IMG/VR virus record: IMGVR_UViG_3300048861_000274
Span: 1-40,682 of that record
DNA: 40,682 nucleotides
DNA from: a virus
Lineage: Duplodnaviria > Caudoviricetes
Direction: 5' to 3' (one strand)
Every line of letters begins with the position of its first letter. Within the stretch, counting starts at the first letter, position 1. The notes beneath the pieces are model-generated. The model was not told the DNA's origin, did no database searches, and saw only the letters and a list, made by a program, of their open reading frames with translations. Of this stretch, positions 2,806 to 35,466 are shown in pieces. A program made the position numbers and the translations under genes.

Positions 2806-2998
2806 TGTCGCCGCCATCGCTGCGGGGCTGAGCGATACCGATCGCGATCGTCTTCTAGACGCCGAGCCGGCCGATAGCTTGGAATACTGGCTTCATGAAC
2901 CAGTGTCGGATCCTCGCATCGCCGGGGATGATCTGGTCGTTAGCCCATTCGGCCTCGCCGTCCGCGCCCACCTTCTGGAGGACACGGGCCATGGGTGA
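2798..2998 (+). CDS. Small hypothetical protein
   Basis: ATG after GGAGG; overlaps both neighbours. Confidence 0.65.
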   Translation: MCDVAAIAAGLSDTDRDRLLDAEPADSLEYWLHEPVSDPRIAGDDLVVSPFGLAVRAHLLEDTGHG

Positions 2999-3104
2999 TG
3001 ATCCGACAGACCCGCTGATGTTCGCAGAGTTCGTCATGGGCATCCTGACGATCTGCGGGCTTCTCTACTTCGCCGCCCGCTGGATGGAGACACAGCATGG
3101 ATGA
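2991..3104 (+). CDS. Small single-pass membrane protein
   Basis: GGAGG RBS; hydrophobic LMFAEFVMGILTICGLLYFAA. Confidence 0.65.
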   Translation: MGDDPTDPLMFAEFVMGILTICGLLYFAARWMETQHG

Positions 3105-3600
3105 TGCAGAGCGCAGGGCGCGGGAGATGCTGGCGGCTGAGTTCGACGATCCTACCGGATACGCAGGAACGGCCATCGACATCCGACGCGGTAGTTTCGT
3201 CGGCATACCGGCAGAACGGGCGGTCGGTGTCATAGCAAAACTCATTGAAGCCAGAGACTTCTACGCCGGCCGGTACGCCGAGAGGTGCGCACCGCAGTCA
3301 GAGGAACCCTCCGCCGACTACCGGCGCGGGCTGGATGAACTGAGGAAGCTGAGCGATCGGGCAACGGCTGGCGAGTGGATGGTGCAGGACGGCTGCTCAT
3401 GGCGCCGGATCGGTACGCATATGCACGACGGCGATGTTCTGTGCCCGATCGTCCAGCGCGATGGCCATCCTGACCTGATTGCAGCGGATGGCAAGCGCGA
3501 CGCCAACATGCGGTTCATCGTGGCCGCCATCAACTTCGTCAGGCAGGCCCTCGCCCAGCCCGAACCCACCAGCGGGGAGAGTGATCATGCACAGCGCTGA
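3097..3600 (+). CDS. Ead/Ea22-like phage protein
   Basis: ELRKLSDRATAGEW ... DANMRFIVAA motif pair. Confidence 0.7.
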   Translation: MDDAERRAREMLAAEFDDPTGYAGTAIDIRRGSFVGIPAERAVGVIAKLIEARDFYAGRYAERCAPQSEEPSADYRRGLDELRKLSDRATAGEWMVQDGCSWRRIGTHMHDGDVLCPIVQRDGHPDLIAADGKRDANMRFIVAAINFVRQALAQPEPTSGESDHAQR

Positions 3601-3808
3601 GGATGAGCGAGAGGCGGTGGTGCGGCTCGTGCGCCAAGCTGGCCTAGAGGCTGTCAGGATGCGCCTTGTGGCTGGAATGCCAGGCGACACCCGAACTGAT
3701 CGCGCCAAGGCCGAAGCGTTCGCCGATGGATGCTCGCATGCCTGCAAGTCGATCCTTGAGGCCATCGAGCAGGGCGCCCACCTCCAGCGGAAGGAGGGGC
3801 TGGGATGA
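3587..3808 (+). CDS. Hypothetical protein
   Basis: GGAG RBS; ERxAVV...AIEQGAHL pattern; ATGA overlap with tnpB. Confidence 0.7.
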   Translation: MHSAEDEREAVVRLVRQAGLEAVRMRLVAGMPGDTRTDRAKAEAFADGCSHACKSILEAIEQGAHLQRKEGLG

Positions 3809-4866
3809 GCCGGACGCGTCCTCTTCTGACCGTGCGCCTCAGGCTCCGGGACAAGCACTGCCGCAGCCTAAATGCTCAGGCGCGTTCAGTGAATTTCGTC
3901 TGGAATTATGTGAACGAGGTTCAGAAAAAAGCCGTTCAATCGCTTCGCCCTTGGATGTCGAAATATGACCTGATGCAGCTCACTGCCGGAGCGGCAAAGG
4001 ATCTAGGCCTGCACGCTCACACCATCCAGCGAGTCTGTCGGCTGTATGACGAATCGCGACGCTCTAAGGGAAGGGCCTGGCTGCGTTGGCGAGGGCGAAA
4101 GTCGCTCGGCTGGGTTCCGTTCAATACAGGTCATGTCCGTTTTGATGGCGAGAGGTTCATTTTCAATGGCGTTGCCTACGAGGCAATGCACCTGCGGGAT
4201 GCTCTCGCTTCGGGCATGAGATTTGGCGCCGGCTCATTCAGCGCTGATGCGAAGGGCCACTGGTATATCAACCTGCCTTGCGAGATGCCCTGTTCGGGTG
4301 TTCGCAACTCTGGCGCTGTCGGTATAGATTTAGGCCTTAAAACCCTCGCCGCGCTATCGGATGGTGAGGCGATCGCTATGCCTAGCTTCTACCGCAAAAG
4401 CGAAGCGGCACTTGCGCAGGCTCAGCGAGCCCGGAAGTCGAAGCGCGCGAAGGCCATCCATGGGAAGATCGTAAACCGCAGAAAGGATTTCCTGCACAAG
4501 GCCAGCCGGGCGCTGTGCGAGAAATACGGGCTGATCATCGTTGGTGATGTCAGCCCGTCCAAATTGGCCAAGACCCGCATGGCAAAGTCCATTCTGGACG
4601 CAAGCTGGTCGGGATTCCGTCACATGCTCTCGTACAAGGCCATTAGGCATGGCGGGAGAATGGTCGAAGTCCCTGAGGCCTACACGACGCAGACCTGCTC
4701 GACATGCGGCGCTCTGCCGCCGTCGAGGCCGAGAGGTATCGCAGGTCTGGCAATAAGAGAATGGACGTGCAGCGACTGCGAAACGGTCCACGACCGCGAC
4801 ACCAACGCTGCCCGGAACATTCTCCGCTTCGGTCTGGAAGCGCTTGTAGAAGGAGCCCTTCAATGA
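3805..4866 (+). CDS. tnpB: TnpB-family (IS200/IS605 OrfB) RNA-guided nuclease homologue, no TnpA nearby
   Basis: N-terminal VRLRL/FVWN, RuvC-I GIDLGLK, bridge NRRKDFLHK, IIVGD, EAYTTQTCSTC...WTCSDC zinc finger, RuvC-III HDRDTNAARNI. Confidence 0.95.
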   Translation: MSRTRPLLTVRLRLRDKHCRSLNAQARSVNFVWNYVNEVQKKAVQSLRPWMSKYDLMQLTAGAAKDLGLHAHTIQRVCRLYDESRRSKGRAWLRWRGRKSLGWVPFNTGHVRFDGERFIFNGVAYEAMHLRDALASGMRFGAGSFSADAKGHWYINLPCEMPCSGVRNSGAVGIDLGLKTLAALSDGEAIAMPSFYRKSEAALAQAQRARKSKRAKAIHGKIVNRRKDFLHKASRALCEKYGLIIVGDVSPSKLAKTRMAKSILDASWSGFRHMLSYKAIRHGGRMVEVPEAYTTQTCSTCGALPPSRPRGIAGLAIREWTCSDCETVHDRDTNAARNILRFGLEALVEGALQ

Positions 4867-5180
4867 AGGTAGCAGACACCCAGACCATCCGCGAGCGGGC
4901 CGTGGAACATGTCTCATATAAACTGGCGGGCAACGAGACCCACCAGCAATTGTTCTACAAGGGGCTGAATAAGGAAGGCTGGGATGACCTCGCCAAATGC
5001 GCCTTTGAAGCCGTCATAGATATTCTCATGGAGCCGGATGAGGGGATGCAGCATGAGGGGGCCCTTCGCATCTGCATGAGCCGAGAGATGGGTGATGACT
5101 ATTATTTTGCGGCGAAAGAATCCCTCCAAGCCATGCTGCGGCGGGCTGCTGGGAGGGGGGAGAATGGGTCTGACGCCTGA
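4863..5180 (+). CDS. Phage hypothetical protein
   Basis: AAGGAG RBS inside tnpB; ATGA overlap. Confidence 0.75.
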   Translation: MKVADTQTIRERAVEHVSYKLAGNETHQQLFYKGLNKEGWDDLAKCAFEAVIDILMEPDEGMQHEGALRICMSREMGDDYYFAAKESLQAMLRRAAGRGENGSDA

Positions 5181-5228
5181 TCTGCGGTATATTCGTAGCG
5201 TGTGCAGTTGCATCTAAGGGGCCAAATC

Positions 5229-5534
5229 ATGAACATGGTTGAACGAGTGGCACGGGCGCTGTGCATTCAGGACAACAAAGATCCGGACGATATGCTTAAC
5301 CCACCCATGGATATTGCGGTCGTTCGTGATGACATCGCACCGCGGCCGAAGGTGCCGCAGTGGAAGAACTTCGTCGCCCCGGCTCTGGTCGCTCTTCGGG
5401 AGATTAGAACTCCCACCCCAACAATGCTCGTGGAGGCAGAGGAGCGGCTCAAGATAGACCGCACCACGATTGCGGATGTCTGGGACGTGATGACCTATGC
5501 CGCTCAGCGCCGGGAACGCCCGCTAGCGCCGTGA
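5229..5534 (+). CDS. Phage hypothetical protein
   Basis: MVERVARAL...ALREIRTPTPTM pattern common in alphaproteobacterial phages. Confidence 0.75.
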   Translation: MNMVERVARALCIQDNKDPDDMLNPPMDIAVVRDDIAPRPKVPQWKNFVAPALVALREIRTPTPTMLVEAEERLKIDRTTIADVWDVMTYAAQRRERPLAP

Positions 5535-5926
5535 CCCTCCACTGGAACCCGAACCGGATCAGCACCCGCGCCCGCGTCCTGAAGGCGGTGCGCGACTATT
5601 TCCGCGAGTGTGGCATGTCGCCGTCGTTCTCGCAGATCGGGTTACGGGCGGGGATACCGAAGCAGCGGGTCGGGAGGTATCTCGACGAGCTGCAACGCGA
5701 TGAGTACCTGAGCTATGTGAAGGGCGAGGCGTGCTCGATCGTGCTGGTCGATCCCGGTGCGAACCTGTCGGACGCTGATCTGCGGGCTGCGTGTATCGGG
5801 CGGGGCCTGCCAGACCCCTTCCTGCTGATGAGGCACTGGCCCGCGATCATGGCCGCCATCCCGGAAGCATTCCCGGTCGACCCAATCATACCGGACGACA
5901 TCGCGGACCTGCTCAAGAAGTTGTGA
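5531..5926 (+). CDS. LexA-type winged-helix DNA-binding protein without peptidase domain
   Basis: VLKAVRDYFRECGMSPSFSQIG...VGRYLDELQRDEYL matches the LexA DBD pattern; no S24 domain. Confidence 0.75.
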   Translation: MTLHWNPNRISTRARVLKAVRDYFRECGMSPSFSQIGLRAGIPKQRVGRYLDELQRDEYLSYVKGEACSIVLVDPGANLSDADLRAACIGRGLPDPFLLMRHWPAIMAAIPEAFPVDPIIPDDIADLLKKL

Positions 5927-6125
5927 CCGGCCGTCCTCTACGACGTCCCCCGACAGCGGAAGCCGACCGATCACGCCGCCCCGTTGCACGGCGGAGGCAC
6001 GCAAGCCACAGAATATCGCTGTCATTTCGGTTGCGATCACCTGTGACGAAATTGGGACTATGCGACATCCCGCCAGAGACTCACCCCCATAGCTGAAGGC
6101 GCCATCCAGGTGCCGGGGGTTCGAG

Positions 6126-6746
6126 ATGGCAAAGCGTACCAAGAGCAAGGTCAAGTCGATGTCGCCGGAGAAGGTGGCGCAGCGGGAGGAGCGGCGTTGG
6201 CAGGAGGCTGTCAACGATATCGGCGCGGCCATCGGCATGCCGGAAGCCCAGCGCAATCCCAAGACGGTCCAGCTCGCCACCACGGCGATTGTCGACGGCT
6301 ATTCGCGGCCTATGTCGAAAACGCTTCGGAAACTCACCCCTGTTGACCGGCTGCGTAAAGCCGGCGTCCTAGAGTTCCACGAAGCTGAAGCCTGCGAGGA
6401 TTACGCGAGCATCATGGCGCGTGCATGGGACACAGTCGGTTGCACCGCCAACTACAGCGGAATGGGGTCGGGGAACTACTCCGATGCAGCGAAACGAGCG
6501 CACCGGCAGACCGAGGACCAGATCGAGGCCCGAGCTAACTACTGGTTCGCCCGATCAGCCCTTCCTGAGCAGTACGTCCCGGTCTTCGAGGCCGTGATCT
6601 GCCACAACGCTACGATCGCCAACATCGCCGGCGAGAAGTTCTCCGCGCTCGGCCGGTCACAGCGCGAGCATAAGACCCGCGCGATCATCAAGCTCTGCGC
6701 CAACCTTCTGCATGGCGCGGTCGGCAACCGGTTGACGGTGCGCTGA
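6126..6746 (+). CDS. Probable late-gene activator/antiterminator (DUF6456-like)
   Basis: Position upstream of the late promoter; PVDRLRKAGVL...EAEACEDY and a C-terminal helical HTH-like segment. Confidence 0.5.
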   Translation: MAKRTKSKVKSMSPEKVAQREERRWQEAVNDIGAAIGMPEAQRNPKTVQLATTAIVDGYSRPMSKTLRKLTPVDRLRKAGVLEFHEAEACEDYASIMARAWDTVGCTANYSGMGSGNYSDAAKRAHRQTEDQIEARANYWFARSALPEQYVPVFEAVICHNATIANIAGEKFSALGRSQREHKTRAIIKLCANLLHGAVGNRLTVR

Positions 6747-29196: not shown

Positions 29197-30892
29197 CCTC
29201 ATGATCGCCCTGATGCTCATGCTCGGGCTCGTCTCGCCGGCTCTCGCCGGAGGCCCCAACTTCTCGAATAGCGGGGGCATCGGCAACGGCGCTTATACGC
29301 CAGCCGGATCCAGCGGAGAGCCGTGCGGTACCGGCGCAACGTGGTGCATCAATGGCGCGACCGGGGCAATTAACGGCGGAACGGTCGCGGTCGGGGGCGC
29401 CATTTCGGCTGGGTCGGTTACGGCTACGGGCGTAGGATCATTCGGATCGGTATCCGGCAATGCTTCGGCTGCCTCCGCGCTATCATCGGATAGCGGCGCG
29501 CTCGCCCGCGCGTTCTCGGATCGCCTTGTGGATCAGGTCTCGGTCAAGGATTTCTGCTCTGCTGCGATCTCCAGCAATAACGCAGAGAACCCATCGCTCG
29601 ATGCCACTCCATGCATCCAGGCTGCTGTCACCGCGATGTGCGCCCGAACCAATTTCGGCGGCCGGATCTTCATACCGGCCGGCAGCTATTACATCGCGGC
29701 CACGGTCAACGTCACCTGCTCCGGTCTGGATATCGCCGGCGCCGGGATCGGCGACCGATATGTCGCTTCTGGCACCCAGATCATCGCTGGCCATCGGACG
29801 GACACGAATCCGGTATTCCTTGCCAAGGTTACCGGCTTCACGAGCCAGGCCGGCGAGACGAACGCCCCTAGCCCCTCCATTTTCTCCAGCGGACTCGCCA
29901 TCCATGACATGGCGTTCGTCAATCAGGGGGCGAGCGTCGCCAATGGCCGCTCCGGCGCCATGATGGAACTCGATTTCTGGCAGCAGGCGTACGTCTACAA
30001 CATCAACGCCTACGCGGTTTGCACTGCGGCGAAGGTGTATGGAGGATTCTTTGTCAGCTTCAGCAACGTGATAGCGGACAATTTTCAGACCGGTTGCTCG
30101 ACGTTCGCCCTCTCTGGCGATGTGACAAAAAGCTATACCACGCTCGATGTTGTGTCCTTCGATCGCGTGAAGGTAAATGCCGGCGCGTCGGGCGCCTGTT
30201 ACGCGATTACCGATCGTGTCCAGACGGTGTGGTGGCGCAATACAACCTGTGAGACCTCTGGATTTGCGTTGCAATCGTCCTGCCCAACCATGACAAATGC
30301 GCTGTACTGTCCGGGATTTTTCACTCTTCAAGATTTTGAAGCGGAATATATGGGCACTGCGGGCGGGAACCTGATCGACATCAATGATCTCGTTGACGGC
30401 TTCAAAATGACGCAGTCGTGGCTGCGCGGATTCAACAGCGGCAACTTCGTAAATAATCTACTTAGCTTCCAGCAAAGTCGATTTACCACGACGGACTTGC
30501 TCACCGTCTCCATCAGCGACAGCTGGCTGAAGGGGTCCGGCGGAGACGCGCTTTATGTGAACGCACCCGGCGCCATGACGATTACCGGCAACCACATCTA
30601 TGGCGCCTCCCACTTCAACGCTGGCGCCTTCGGTGGAGTCACTCTGGACACGAAGGCGAAAGGTGTCTCGATCGTCAGCAACGTTTTCTGCGGGGGCGAC
30701 TGGCTGGCCGACGTCGGGAACCAGATGACCGGAATCCGGATTCTTGGGGTTTCCGACTACATCACCGTGACGGGCAACGTTTTCCAAGGCGACGTCTCGC
30801 CGCCGTCTGGGCAGCACAATGGCTGCTCGTCCGCGCTCTCGAACACGTCGAGCGGGACGCATACGACAGCTACGGGCAACGTTGGACCGTAA
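29189..30892 (+). CDS. Right-handed beta-helix tailspike/depolymerase-like protein with N-terminal signal peptide
   Basis: MRNLMIALMLMLGLVSPALA signal; VSVKDF, DATPCIQAAV, GGRIFIPAGSY pectate-lyase-3-like start; ITGNHI/IVSNVF/VTGNVF repeats. Confidence 0.82.
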   Translation: MRNLMIALMLMLGLVSPALAGGPNFSNSGGIGNGAYTPAGSSGEPCGTGATWCINGATGAINGGTVAVGGAISAGSVTATGVGSFGSVSGNASAASALSSDSGALARAFSDRLVDQVSVKDFCSAAISSNNAENPSLDATPCIQAAVTAMCARTNFGGRIFIPAGSYYIAATVNVTCSGLDIAGAGIGDRYVASGTQIIAGHRTDTNPVFLAKVTGFTSQAGETNAPSPSIFSSGLAIHDMAFVNQGASVANGRSGAMMELDFWQQAYVYNINAYAVCTAAKVYGGFFVSFSNVIADNFQTGCSTFALSGDVTKSYTTLDVVSFDRVKVNAGASGACYAITDRVQTVWWRNTTCETSGFALQSSCPTMTNALYCPGFFTLQDFEAEYMGTAGGNLIDINDLVDGFKMTQSWLRGFNSGNFVNNLLSFQQSRFTTTDLLTVSISDSWLKGSGGDALYVNAPGAMTITGNHIYGASHFNAGAFGGVTLDTKAKGVSIVSNVFCGGDWLADVGNQMTGIRILGVSDYITVTGNVFQGDVSPPSGQHNGCSSALSNTSSGTHTTATGNVGP

Positions 30893-30895
30893 GCG

Positions 30896-30933
30896 ATCGG
30901 GCAGGCAGGCAAATCTATCGCCTGCCGCCTGAT
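30896..30933. terminator. Stem-loop between convergent genes
   Basis: ATCGGGC-A-GGCAGGC ... GCCTGCC-GCCTGAT inverted repeat. Confidence 0.6.
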
Positions 30934-31703
30934 TAGCGAGATAGTGCCTGTTTTGCAGCCTCTACGACGGCCTCAAGATGGCGGACACGTTCTTCCAGAT
31001 CAGATATCCGACGCACGTGGCTGAAGTGAATAAAGTCGTCTGTGGGATATTTGAACGCACCCATGCGCTCGGGGTGCTCATTGGCGACATACCAACGGTT
31101 AAGGCCATCAAAGCCAACGAAGGTATAATCGGCAGCTAGCACCATGGGCTCCCATGCTTCATGGGTATGAACATGAACCTTCATTGGTTCTGTCGCCTCA
31201 ATGCACAGTATCCAGGGCCTGAACCGCTTAAAGTCCATTCCTCGAATCGCCTGTTCCTCGAAGCCCTCAACGTCAATTTTGAGGAAATGGATATTGGCCG
31301 GCGCATGCTGCTCGCAAATTTGCGTGAGGGTCAGGGCGTCAACCTCCACGCCCCGCTTCTCGACATTCCAGTCGCCGACATGGCGATCCGCGAACTCCTC
31401 AACGGCAGTTCCAAGGCCGCCCTCGGGGTGATCGTAGAGAGTAAGCTTTCCGGGCTTGTCCGACGCTGCGGCGTGGACGTTGATGTCACGCGGCCGTTCC
31501 TCCGAAAGGCGCTTGTGCCAATAGGGCGACGGCTCGACGTTGATGCCGTGCCATCCATGGTCATAGAACAGCTTTGTCACCGAATGCTCATCAGGCGCAT
31601 TGGCGCCGACGTCGATGTAAAACCCTTCGCTATGATGCACGCCATTCAAAGCGCGAAGCAATAAAATGTCTTCTCGTTGAATAGACCAACTTACTACTGC
31701 CAA
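30933..31703 (-). CDS. FkbM-family methyltransferase
   Basis: FYIDVGAN, GWHGINVEP, FLKIDVEGFE, FDGLNRWY, C-terminal coiled coil. Confidence 0.93.
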   Translation of the reverse strand: MAVVSWSIQREDILLLRALNGVHHSEGFYIDVGANAPDEHSVTKLFYDHGWHGINVEPSPYWHKRLSEERPRDINVHAAASDKPGKLTLYDHPEGGLGTAVEEFADRHVGDWNVEKRGVEVDALTLTQICEQHAPANIHFLKIDVEGFEEQAIRGMDFKRFRPWILCIEATEPMKVHVHTHEAWEPMVLAADYTFVGFDGLNRWYVANEHPERMGAFKYPTDDFIHFSHVRRISDLEERVRHLEAVVEAAKQALSR

Positions 31704-31727
31704 GATGTCCTCCGCCTTCTCTATGCG

Positions 31728-32015
31728 TCAATTTATCGACTTAGCTTGGTGGTTTTGATTGTTTGAATCCATCATCCGCAATATCTGCCGGTGGAGATCC
31801 TGGCCGAACCCGGACACGAATTTTAGTATTGCTGTTTGATCGATTACAAAACGAGGATCGCTGCTGATGATGGCCGCGACTGTCCGGCCAAGCGCACGGA
31901 CGGCGAGGGCGTTCGTTTCAAAAACGTCTGTCTTGCCACTTTCGGCTGTCACCCTTTGGATAGCGTCTTGTATGCAATTATCCAGGGCGGCATCGAAATC
32001 GGATATATCGTTCAT
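31728..32015 (-). CDS. Hypothetical protein
   Basis: ORF between the two methyltransferases; probable start MNDISDF. Confidence 0.55.
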   Translation of the reverse strand: MNDISDFDAALDNCIQDAIQRVTAESGKTDVFETNALAVRALGRTVAAIISSDPRFVIDQTAILKFVSGFGQDLHRQILRMMDSNNQNHQAKSIN

Positions 32016-32088
32016 GCGGTGCCTTATAGCTGCGCGGTCATCGCTGCGGCAAGAAAGGCCGGAGCGACAGCCATTCATGGAACCGATC

Positions 32089-33192
32089 TTATCCAGCCTT
32101 CCTAACGAGAATCCCGAAACACGTTGATGGGAATCCATCCAAGGCAACCTTTAGGGCCGGCGTTCCACCGAGGAATTGCTGGGTTTCTTGCGGCATATCG
32201 TGGATCCAAGGCGGAAGGTCGATAAACCGATCCATAGGCTTATCGCCGAGATCGTAGTTCAGCGGCGCCACATAGTGGCCGTTATCTCGCAGGTGCTGTG
32301 CCAGCGTGCCAAAATGCGCCCGCTGGAAGAGTACCGTAGGCCAGTTATCGATCGTTGCGCCATGGGGCTCGATGTTGAACTCAGTCGTGTGCACTGAGAG
32401 GCCGCCTGGCCTCAGTGTCGCCAAGCTATTCTCGATGAAGGCTATGCCGTTTCTGATTGATCCGAGATGCTCCAGCGCGCATACCGACCAACAGAAATCA
32501 TAGCCAGTCAGATCATCTGGGATCGCATTCATATCAACGTACCTAAGCGACACGAGCCTATCAAACTCATCGCGATTAATCATGTCCGGCATGAATGCTT
32601 GATCAAGGCTCGCGGCATGCTGATTAGTGGCAGCCCATCCGGCCGCCTGGGCTTCAGCCGCAGCTAGGTCAGTGACCGTCACTGACACCCCATTTTTGGC
32701 AAGGTAGCTTGGGATTGGCTCGGTTCCGCAACCAAATCCGAGGCCCCGTGCGCCTGCTCGGATGTGGCCGTTCTCGTGCATCGCCTGAAGGACATAGGCG
32801 AGCTCCCAGAGCTTCCGATGGAATATGACCGGAATGTTGAGCTGGGCACACCAATGTGCCAGCCAATCGCTTTCCATGTCGACCTGGGTAGAGGCCTTTG
32901 ACTGAAGGCCAACGAATCGCGGGGCCGTGTTCCTATGGAGAGGCATGGTTTCGGCCAGTTTTCGCGCTAGGTCGTAGCCGTAAAACTTCAGGTTCATGTT
33001 CGTGAGGTGCGTGTTACGCACCATGATATTGAGAGCACTCAAGTTTGGCTGCTGCTCAGCGTTCAGCCTAGACAGGGACAGGAGGGAGTGCACCTCTGCA
33101 AGAATCTCAGACTTGATTGAGGCGCGAAAAGATTCTCGTTCAGCCTCTATTTCTCGCGCCCGCTTCTGCCTACGATGCTTCGATCCGAACAA
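32089..33192 (-). CDS. Class I SAM-dependent methyltransferase
   Basis: HRKLWE, GLGFGCGTEP, VTVTDL, VDMN, CALEHLGS, LRPGGLSVHTTEF. Confidence 0.88.
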   Translation of the reverse strand: MFGSKHRRQKRAREIEAERESFRASIKSEILAEVHSLLSLSRLNAEQQPNLSALNIMVRNTHLTNMNLKFYGYDLARKLAETMPLHRNTAPRFVGLQSKASTQVDMESDWLAHWCAQLNIPVIFHRKLWELAYVLQAMHENGHIRAGARGLGFGCGTEPIPSYLAKNGVSVTVTDLAAAEAQAAGWAATNQHAASLDQAFMPDMINRDEFDRLVSLRYVDMNAIPDDLTGYDFCWSVCALEHLGSIRNGIAFIENSLATLRPGGLSVHTTEFNIEPHGATIDNWPTVLFQRAHFGTLAQHLRDNGHYVAPLNYDLGDKPMDRFIDLPPWIHDMPQETQQFLGGTPALKVALDGFPSTCFGILVRKAG

Positions 33193-33271
33193 GTGAACCC
33201 CCTACTACGAAACGCTTGCGCGGCTATGGACTGAGCCGATGGTGTAGGCAAGCATCGCGAATTTGCTGCAC

Positions 33272-33430: not shown

Positions 33431-33820
33431 ATGAAAATGCCCGCTCGGGCAGCCTTCGCGCTGTCCGTTCTGCTCGCTTGCACGCCGGCTGCGGCGCAGT
33501 CGCTTGATCAGAGCGGCGGTGTGAACTCCTTCAAGGGTGCCGCTATCACCGGTACGTTGTCGGCAGCTGGCGCCTCGGCATCGGTCAAGGTCCGCGGCGA
33601 TTTCAACTTCAGCCTGTGGGGCACCTTCGCCGCGACGTGCGAGCTGGACCGAAGCTTCGATTCCGGCACGACATGGATCCAGCTGACGGCGATCGGATCT
33701 CCGTTCTCTTGGACGGCGCCGGCGACCGAGGTTCTGAACGAGCCGGAATCCGGCATCCTCTACCGGGTCAACTGCACCGCGGTGTCCTCCGGGACTGTGA
33801 ACTATCGGGTGTCGCAGTGA
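33431..33820 (+). CDS. Small beta-rich protein with signal peptide
   Basis: GGAG RBS; MKMPARAAFALSVLLACTPAAA/QS; RSFDSGTTW Asp-box-like motif. Confidence 0.78.
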   Translation: MKMPARAAFALSVLLACTPAAAQSLDQSGGVNSFKGAAITGTLSAAGASASVKVRGDFNFSLWGTFAATCELDRSFDSGTTWIQLTAIGSPFSWTAPATEVLNEPESGILYRVNCTAVSSGTVNYRVSQ

Positions 33821-35466
33821 CGGGTCGCTCGATGCGCGCTATCATGGCGCTGGCGCTCGTTTCCAGTGCGATTTCGCCGGCTTCGGCTGCCATCGATACG
33901 CCGGCTCGCGGTCTAGCGCTTCAGGCGAAAGCCGCGACGGGTATCGCGCCGAAGATGGCGATGCCGTTTTTCCGGGGCATCAGCCTCGCCGGCAACAATC
34001 GCTACGTCGGCGCGACGACGTGGCCGTCGCAGGACGGCATGAAGTATTGGTTGAGCAAGAAGTTCAACCTTTTCCGTATCATGACGACATGGAATAACTT
34101 CCAGTCGCCGGTCGCGGGGTTGCCCGCCGGCCCGTTGAACGCGGCCAACGTCGCGGGCCTGACCGCCACTATCAATTACCTGACCGGGCAAGGTGCCTGG
34201 GTCATCGTCGATATGCACGATGGCCTGCGGTACAAAACCAGCGGCCTCGACGCGGACGCCGGCTCGATCATCGGGCAGTCGACGGTCACCAACGCGCAAT
34301 TCGCGAGCTTCTGGGCTCAGATCGCGAACCTCTACAAGGGCAACCCGCGCGTCATTTTCGAGCTGACGAACGAGCCGAACAACCTCGACACGACGCTCAT
34401 GCTCGGGACGTTTCAGGCGGGCATCAACGGGATCCGGGGCACCGGCGCGCTTAACGCGATCATGGTGGACGGCAACGGCTACTCGACCGCGCTGAACTGG
34501 ACGGCGGGCTCGCCGGCGAACGGCGCCTCGCTGCTGACACTCACCGATCCGGCAAATAACCTGATCCTCTCGCCTCACCAGTATATCGACCGCGCCGGCG
34601 GCACGGTGTCGACGTGCTATCTGAATGAAGCACCGATTGACATGGCCAACGCCACGGCGTGGGCGGCTGCGAACAACGTCAAGCTGCTGCTTGGCGAGTT
34701 CGGAGGCGGCAATAACTCGACCTGCTACAGCGCGCTGAAGGAGCAGATCGACGTCACGGAAAGCCGCCGCGATGCGTGGAGCGGTTGGGTCACGTTCGCG
34801 GCCTATGCCGGCCAATATTCCTATGTGACGCCCGACACGTTCTTCCTCGGCATGGACCCAGACATCTACTCGCCGCTTGGCGTGGACGATCTGCGCATCA
34901 CCAATTCGATGGCGTCCTTCCTGAACGACGCCCCGGGCACCGTGACCAACACCGCTGTCGCCGCCACGAGTATGACGGCCGCCGCTGGCACAGCGACCAA
35001 CACGACCGCGCCGGATGGCGTCACGGCTGCGCGTAAGTTCGTCGAGGACACGACGACCGCGAACCATCAGCTTTTCAGCGGAAACCTGACCCCTACGGCA
35101 GGCAAGAAGCATACCTTCCAGTTTGACGTGCAGCGCGATGCTGGCACCCGGAACGTCCGCGTGGTGATCGCCGATACCCAGACCTACGCCAATTATACCG
35201 ACATGATCATCTCGCTCGATACGGGCACGATCGGGCAGGTCACGGGCAACAGCACGATCTTCACCTATGCGACCGGCAGCGCGCGCAAACTCGACAACAA
35301 CGCCTGGCGCATCACGGTCAGCACCATCATCGAGAGCATTACGGGCGCCGGGACGATCAACGCGACCGTCAATTTGCAGCCGGTAGGTTCGACTAGCTCG
35401 GCTGGATACGCGGGCGATGGAACGAGCGCGCTGCGTCTCTGGAACATGCAGTGGAAGGTCAACTGA
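33817..35466 (+). CDS. Glycoside hydrolase family 5 with signal peptide and C-terminal beta-sandwich domain
   Basis: NLFRI, IVDMH, FELTNEP acid/base, HQY, LGEFG nucleophile; Thr/Ala linker; APDG-containing C-domain; GTGA overlap (alternative ATG 33832). Confidence 0.9.
   Translation: MTGRSMRAIMALALVSSAISPASAAIDTPARGLALQAKAATGIAPKMAMPFFRGISLAGNNRYVGATTWPSQDGMKYWLSKKFNLFRIMTTWNNFQSPVAGLPAGPLNAANVAGLTATINYLTGQGAWVIVDMHDGLRYKTSGLDADAGSIIGQSTVTNAQFASFWAQIANLYKGNPRVIFELTNEPNNLDTTLMLGTFQAGINGIRGTGALNAIMVDGNGYSTALNWTAGSPANGASLLTLTDPANNLILSPHQYIDRAGGTVSTCYLNEAPIDMANATAWAAANNVKLLLGEFGGGNNSTCYSALKEQIDVTESRRDAWSGWVTFAAYAGQYSYVTPDTFFLGMDPDIYSPLGVDDLRITNSMASFLNDAPGTVTNTAVAATSMTAAAGTATNTTAPDGVTAARKFVEDTTTANHQLFSGNLTPTAGKKHTFQFDVQRDAGTRNVRVVIADTQTYANYTDMIISLDTGTIGQVTGNSTIFTYATGSARKLDNNAWRITVSTIIESITGAGTINATVNLQPVGSTSSAGYAGDGTSALRLWNMQWKVN

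Follow-up and report, generated by a model that had tools for sequence, protein, structure and literature searches.

A RuvC-II-rearranged TnpB in a provirus early operon: a candidate RNA-guided homing cassette with a predicted restart signal

Our analysis of a provirus record about 73% complete, referred to here as the window (the whole stretch of 40,682 bases), suggests that its tnpB gene belongs to a translationally silent, transposase-independent, RNA-guided homing cassette, a reading that we judge somewhat likelier to be right than wrong. By its sequence, the encoded protein is a RuvC-II-rearranged TnpB of the published RIIr-5/TnpB2 type. The active-site swap flagged in an earlier note on this DNA is itself an already known class and not new. 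The new part is the context: the element appears to have entered the start codon of a phage gene, and an SD sequence and ATG inside its predicted omegaRNA likely keep the interrupted gene working. The features of the locus are given in Table 1.

Table 1. Features of the tnpB locus, numbered from the first base of the window
Feature	Position	Strand	Remarks
Upstream phage ORF	3587..3808	+	73 aa from ATG at 3587; no family; TGA overlaps tnpB ATG
Ribosome-binding site AAGGAGG	3791..3797	+	7 nt ahead of tnpB ATG; from sequence
ATGAG: start codon and inferred TAM position (TGAN)	3805..3809	+	Left boundary inferred after 3809, by analogy with relatives keeping the left end
tnpB, RuvC-II-rearranged (D175, G247, E291, D332)	3805..4866	+	353 aa
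Synonymous-site constraint block inside tnpB	4723..4752	+	Several codons reach third-base identities of 0.7-1.0; the 5′ half lies at about 0.33
Predicted omegaRNA stem 1 (6 bp) and 6-nt pseudoknot loop	4825..4842	+	From covariation
Short covarying stem and AAGGAG ribosome-binding site (4850-4855)	4843..4856	+	
Mini hairpin of 5 bp that contains the ATGA stop/start overlap	4857..4869	+	Intact relatives have the same hairpin and the TnpA-binding right-end hairpin here
Restarted downstream ORF	4863..5180	+	105 aa; element supplies the first five codons plus two bases; no family, no relatives
Strand of the pseudoknot (4873-4877), then the final two bases of the element	4873..4879	+	Right boundary after 4879
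Predicted guide, formed by the opening codons of the interrupted gene	4880..4899	+	Matched by the TnpB-free sister allele (4878-4904)

The rearranged active site and its class

The tnpB product scores 217.9 bits against the guided_TnpB profile (cut-off 100), matches PF01385, PF07282 and PHROG 506, and scores higher against the IS200_TnpB profile (159.5 bits) than against that of IS607_TnpB (86.3 bits). The earlier note had read the aspartates of RuvC-I and of RuvC-III as intact, and D175 (GIDLG) and D332 (HDRDTN) are both in place. Its claim that G247 (IIVGD) replaces the RuvC-II glutamate also holds, G247 being aligned to the catalytic Glu of ISDra2 TnpB. E291, 44 residues further on, lies ahead of a C4 zinc finger (C298/C301/C322/C325) as the note had proposed, with six residues between it and C298 of the first CxxC. 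The note was only partly right that canonical TnpBs usually have Pro at this position: among the 42 canonical-E relatives in the matches listed, a sample rich in Actinomycetes, Pro occurs in six, whereas Arg occurs in 33, Gln in two and Lys in one. The aligned residue of ISDra2 TnpB is Tyr.

The D-G-E-D state is common to 119 of the 119 homologues listed, the window's own sequence left out, and hence is a clade trait rather than a chance change; it is also invariant across the 56-row alignment A1. An AlphaFold model (mean pLDDT 83) has the TnpB fold, with D175 within strand 171-176, E291 directly after strand 285-290 and D332 at the beginning of helix 331-350. The conserved triad suggests that the protein is probably active as a nuclease, as does the DNA cleavage reported for its class. 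The rearranged site is not an assembly error, since it lies in sequence recovered with no differences in contigs of two soil metagenome runs: one contig of run X1, possibly the source of the window DNA, covers 3092-5159, and two contigs of run X2, from another study, cover 3365-4746. No RNA data set was listed as containing the region.

Replacement of the glutamate by Gly with a compensating glutamate is the described state of RIIr-5, the largest rearranged clade (Altae-Tran 2023, PMC10691335). Jiang 2023 (PMC10530073) places the alternative Glu about 45 residues away and reports it as essential in ApmFNuc; TvTnpB, a rearranged-site TnpB, is reported in the same work to cleave DNA beside TGAC without collateral activity. 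The label “Fanzor-like” given in the earlier note is apt for the position of the glutamate but not otherwise. Pro-Fanzors are described as combining DPG at RuvC-I with the alternative Glu and an IS607 TnpA (Yoon 2023, PMC10711439). We rejected this assignment: RuvC-I reads D175-L-G (DLG), the ends of the relatives are IS605-type hairpins rather than IS607, and the neighbouring ORFs scanned include no IS607 serine TnpA or recombinase.

Could the protein instead be a TldR-like repressor that is guided by RNA and binds without cutting? It lacks the canonical RuvC-II Glu, it lies in a prophage and, as for TldRs, it has no transposon ends. However, the definition given by Wiegand 2023 (PMC10705468) asks for at least two lost catalytic residues, precisely because rearranged glutamates exist. 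Only one canonical residue is lost here, D175 and D332 are retained, and the alternative Glu is invariant, in agreement with the earlier note's preference for a rearranged TnpB. Moreover, the predicted guide corresponds to the beginning of the next ORF and not to a promoter, and the genes beside tnpB are small phage ORFs, with no fliC, oppF or csrA among them. We therefore rejected the TldR assignment, and regard a repressor as highly improbable.

A short omegaRNA that carries a start signal

The predicted omegaRNA core spans 4825-4879 (55 nt) and is intact; the cores at six other loci are 53-60 nt long. Stem 1, located by anchoring solely on the D332 codon, has 168 of 168 cells paired over 28 loci (10,000 shuffles: mean 115, maximum 137), and the pseudoknot, in which loop bases 4832-4836 meet 4873-4877, has 127 of 130 paired across the 26 loci whose end was recognised (mean 110, maximum 122); these counts are not independent, since the loci are related and the shuffle test takes them as unrelated. 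RNAalifold recovers stem 1 with up to eight double changes per pair, whereas free-energy folding alone fails to single out the scaffold (z −0.53). The 5′ arm of stem 1 in the window forms a complete stem with no 3′ arm from the 27 other loci, and the compensatory changes in its stem 1 and pseudoknot arms are common to no other locus. The right boundary is fixed at 4879 because the window's terminal motif also closes distant IS605-type elements ahead of unrelated flanks. There is no Rfam match within 3000-6200. The synonymous-site constraint at 4723-4752 may mark a promoter or the 5′ portion of the omegaRNA; hence, the RNA may begin further upstream, and 55 nt is the length of the covarying core only. 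A small GNRA-type hairpin lies within this block.

The gene sits in an early operon, among the small early ORFs of a provirus that also carries terminase, portal, sheath and baseplate genes. It has ATGA coupling at both ends, its start overlapping the upstream TGA and its TGA stop overlapping the downstream ATG. The AAGGAGG ahead of it presumably once served to start the interrupted gene and now drives tnpB. Searches found no relatives of either flanking ORF (3587..3808; 4863..5180), no related region in the phage collection, and no sigma-70 promoter or terminator. The early region is made up of interchangeable gene modules in a mosaic arrangement: in both runs, a sister allele skips or replaces a DUF4326 gene (joint 2408 to 2792). 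Further along the record, positions 30001-33200 form a low-GC island (0.54-0.57) of moron-like cargo, its reverse-strand genes including one for a methyltransferase-domain protein (32089-33192), and a 616-aa protein encoded at 33616-35466 combines a GH5 (cellulase-family) domain with a head-spike fibre domain.

An insertion at codon 2 leaves a gene without its start, so the restart frame that restores a codon-2 insertion is the one needed. An SD sequence and a start lie inside the omegaRNA, open to the boundary, at 19 of the 26 clade loci with the right-end motif, and the frame fits a codon-2 insertion in 16 of these 19; the window's own restart is in frame (17 nt). Such in-frame starts occur at 10 of the 11 loci with an intact right-end hairpin. 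The 15 hairpin-less loci divide into six with an in-frame start, two with a start in another frame and seven with none. In a sister group with a different terminus, only 1 of 58 loci has an in-frame SD and start; frame-1 starts at 14 of the 58 were discounted, their ATG lying inside the group's own terminal motif. The distance from ATG to boundary takes 10 distinct values in the clade, seven of them in the restoring frame (p 0.02), or nine of 13 when five further loci are included (p 0.009). Indels have therefore tended to keep the restart frame.

Seven of 20 restarted ORFs match PHROG families, all seven in the restoring frame, and the other 13 match none; five in-frame restarts yield ORFs shorter than 40 aa. 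Among the products are GcrA, MmeI-like and N6/N4 methyltransferases, an HTH protein and GP46, and the GcrA and MmeI-like profiles begin just past the element-encoded residues. The clearest natural case is a Polaromonas locus (L118:3001-7046), where the second codon of an MmeI-like methyltransferase gene holds an intact-ended element and a 997-aa ORF is restarted. Among the best 19 of 48 matches to this gene, all 19 element-free homologues start two codons before the boundary residue, and Thr is residue 2 in 18 of them. In a phage search with another locus, L033, matches begin at residues 1-6 of the post-boundary sequence. The SD within the omegaRNA also encodes a conserved E-G-A, which weighs against this reading. 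Our search of the open-access literature returned no account of an IS605 right end restarting an interrupted gene.

Relatives, ends and a natural target allele

Relatives came from collections of viral, genome and metagenome sequences, made non-redundant at about 90%. The window falls within a 28-row clade with support of 93 in a quick tree (95 rows, SH-aLRT only). Viral contigs make up 27 of the 28 rows, an enrichment that is partly a sampling effect because the genome and metagenome scans covered 4 and 2 of 64 parts. Beyond one already known, close homologues (E≤1e-100) were found neither in 400 sampled Sphingomonadaceae nor in 400 sampled genomes of the class, and plasmids held none; cultured phages contain only 47% relatives. 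A close homologue in Sphingomonas (L097:3001-3993/L324) lies in a 595-codon open frame, with tnpB fused behind a long N-terminal phage-like sequence; P0038 is 527 aa long. Four viral contigs (L228, L231, L232, L236) carry tnpB-less copies of the right-end motif, one an inverted pair, as short non-coding derivatives. A separate long-branch viral subclade (L048, L049, L079, L081) has the rearranged site and an AGGAG motif, with no recognised right end.

TnpA hairpins with DNA guides, present at the left and right ends of relatives, are absent from the window. The right-end hairpin is kept at 11 clade loci and absent at 15, the window included. Our left-end survey of 34 loci, four of them not assessable, gave 16 pattern matches, of which 12 were kept; the other four (window, L020, L006, L045), with five mismatches each and no CAxN guide, were dropped as false. 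Targets were predicted from the left-end guides by the pairing rule of IS608, in which the guide pairs with the cleavage site. The predicted TGAN is found upstream in 11 of the 12 left-ended relatives, its last base varying with the guide (TGAC, TGAT, TGAA, TGAG). TAM and subterminal guide have been described to pair and covary (PMC10055086). Read by eye, nine of the 12 elements lie in an ATG, two in a GTG and one in a CTG, and six of seven script-flagged ATG cases read in frame into tnpB. These patterns suggest that the intact-ended relatives occupy codon 2 of genes.

If so, the history of the cassette can be proposed from its relatives. An ancestral IS605-type element, moved by TnpA in trans, would have entered after the TGAN in a start codon, taking the gene's start for tnpB and re-supplying a start in the matching frame from its own omegaRNA. 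Both transposase hairpins would then have been deleted. In a co-infecting phage that lacks the element, TnpB-omegaRNA is predicted to cut at TAM and guide, and recombination would copy the cassette into the cut sister phage. The resident copy would escape cutting, since a right end rather than a TAM precedes its guide on the 5′ side; no self-target worth noting lies beside a TGAN in the provirus at up to four mismatches. TnpB-driven homing is established, and homing by TnpB and its retention after TnpA loss have both been published (PMC10055086, PMC13565253).

An alternative is that the element is still a transposon, mobilised by a host TnpA in trans through the mini hairpin at 4857-4869 and a degenerate left end. 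No Y1 TnpA (PF01797) was found in the provirus record. The search covered this record, about 73% complete, so a trans-acting tnpA in the rest of the phage or in the host genome is possible, and solo TnpBs are often mobilised in this way (PMC10691335). A perfect 10-nt palindrome (3812-3821) right after the junction could be a remnant of the left end, but it has no folding support (z +0.82). Only 19 nt separate the ATGAG junction from the conserved protein start, there is no left-end hairpin or CAxN guide, and the best left-end match has five mismatches. No near-identical copy was found at another site in the collections searched. We consider continued transposition the least probable of the readings discussed here.

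A candidate target for homing is found in the same soil communities. In both X1 and X2, a sister-allele contig joins 3121 to 4878 and 4904 to 5130, at depths of 11 and 9.97 (tnpB allele, 15 and 4-5). In X2, an equal-depth record (1001 nt; 261 nt at 96% on 2861-3121) was taken as the sister contig. The sister arm is 710 nt long, compared with 2008 nt in the window, and therefore has no room for tnpB. Its 27-nt match (4878-4904) has a likeness of 85% and is bounded by joints of a kind that often stem from repeats or other organisms; it starts two bases ahead of the predicted guide. This is what an element-free TAM/start ending in AC would give, whereas the window's own 5′ junction is TGAG. The sister allele could also be a deletion derivative of the cassette. 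Seven exact matches to an 18-nt guide in viral contigs, none with related flanks, were taken as chance.

What is the present role of the cassette? It could be a neutral relic that has lost its ends, is tolerated because an in-frame restart is nearly harmless, and is decaying with no present homing. The cassette is a single copy without either end, hairpin-less forms are scattered over the quick tree as repeated decay would give, and 9 of the 15 hairpin-less loci lack an in-frame restart. However, the window tnpB is an intact ORF on an end branch of 0.27, and its stem 1 and pseudoknot carry lineage-specific compensatory changes. Six of the eight rows of the window's subclade are hairpin-less yet keep ORF and pseudoknot, and the guide still matches a co-occurring allele. 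A relic is, in our view, unlikely, although it deserves to be taken seriously. Alternatively, the nuclease may benefit its carrier simply by cutting co-infecting or superinfecting sister phages, with flanks too diverged for copying. The sister is less than 85% alike, or different, over about 683 nt beside the site, so that repair would need the more distant homology at 2861-3121 and from 5130 on. Nonetheless, this homology flanks the site on either side at about 1 kb or less, which suffices for co-conversion of the kind described for intronless homing (PMC13565253), and killing without copying seems improbable to us.

We favor homing, and extend the proposal to the clade with more doubt than confidence: the relatives would form a phage-adapted IS605-type lineage that combines start-codon targeting, restart from the omegaRNA, repeated loss of ends, homing between sister phages and an omegaRNA core of about 55 nt, with a natural target allele in the same soil communities.

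Comparison with known systems

Among the rearranged TnpBs, the protein most resembles those of the RIIr-5/TnpB2 class, such as TvTnpB: Gly replaces the RuvC-II Glu, an alternative Glu follows at a distance of about 45 residues (44 here), and DRDxN and the zinc finger are present. The TvTnpB TAM, TGAC, is the commonest target inferred for the intact relatives of the window element. However, TvTnpB belongs to an IS605 element that has TnpA as well as both ends, whereas the window gene has neither TnpA nor hairpins, is embedded in an operon and is followed by an in-frame restart. With Fanzor2 and pro-Fanzors it shares an alternative Glu six residues ahead of the zinc finger (PDB 9b0l; PMC10711439, PMC11832414). 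The fold matches to Fanzor2 9b0l (Z 20.5, rmsd 8.3, 332 aligned) and ISDra2 8h1j (Z 19.9, rmsd 8.2, 323 aligned) are tied, but the sequence match is weaker for Fanzor2 (E 2e-12) than for ISDra2 TnpB (E 8e-29), the best match among natural solved structures.

As in ISDra2, the predicted omegaRNA overlaps the 3′ end of tnpB, the loop of stem 1 pairs with the 3′ end, and the guide is the right flank. ISDra2 differs in having canonical D-E-D, in retaining TnpA and end hairpins, and in its 116-nt scaffold, of the same stem 1/pseudoknot layout (PMC10097598), compared with a 55-nt covarying core here. The window offers a predicted nuclease of 353 aa with a covarying scaffold core about half the length of the ISDra2 scaffold, in a class reported to act without collateral cleavage. 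Relative to mobile IS605/IS1341-type elements, the right-end omegaRNA with its pseudoknot is present, and the TnpA hairpins with DNA guides are absent.

IStrons, in which a group I intron is joined to IS605 or IS607, also keep a TnpB element harmless within a gene, and their retention of TnpB after TnpA loss implies homing (PMC10690162, PMC13565253). We rejected an IStron here: there is no Rfam match for a group I intron in 3000-6200, and the left end has only 19 nt of room. An IStron restores its gene by splicing, whereas the window element would lend a new SD and ATG in frame. If correct, this would add to splicing a second means by which a TnpB transposon can occupy a gene without breaking it. 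It would also show how a transposon could turn into a free-standing RNA-guided homing nuclease of phages, a path that a 2026 review describes as awaiting validation (PMC13565253). The locus offers paired donor and target alleles for a direct test.

TnpB-driven homing, including a plasmid gene drive (PMC11870625), is one precedent for such a nuclease. Another is found in the free-standing homing endonucleases of T-even phages, such as SegF in intronless homing (PMC13565253). There too, a nuclease gene lies in a phage operon, and the window protein is likewise expected to cleave the corresponding allele in a related phage; recognition is by protein only in the T-even enzymes, whereas it is predicted to be RNA-guided here.
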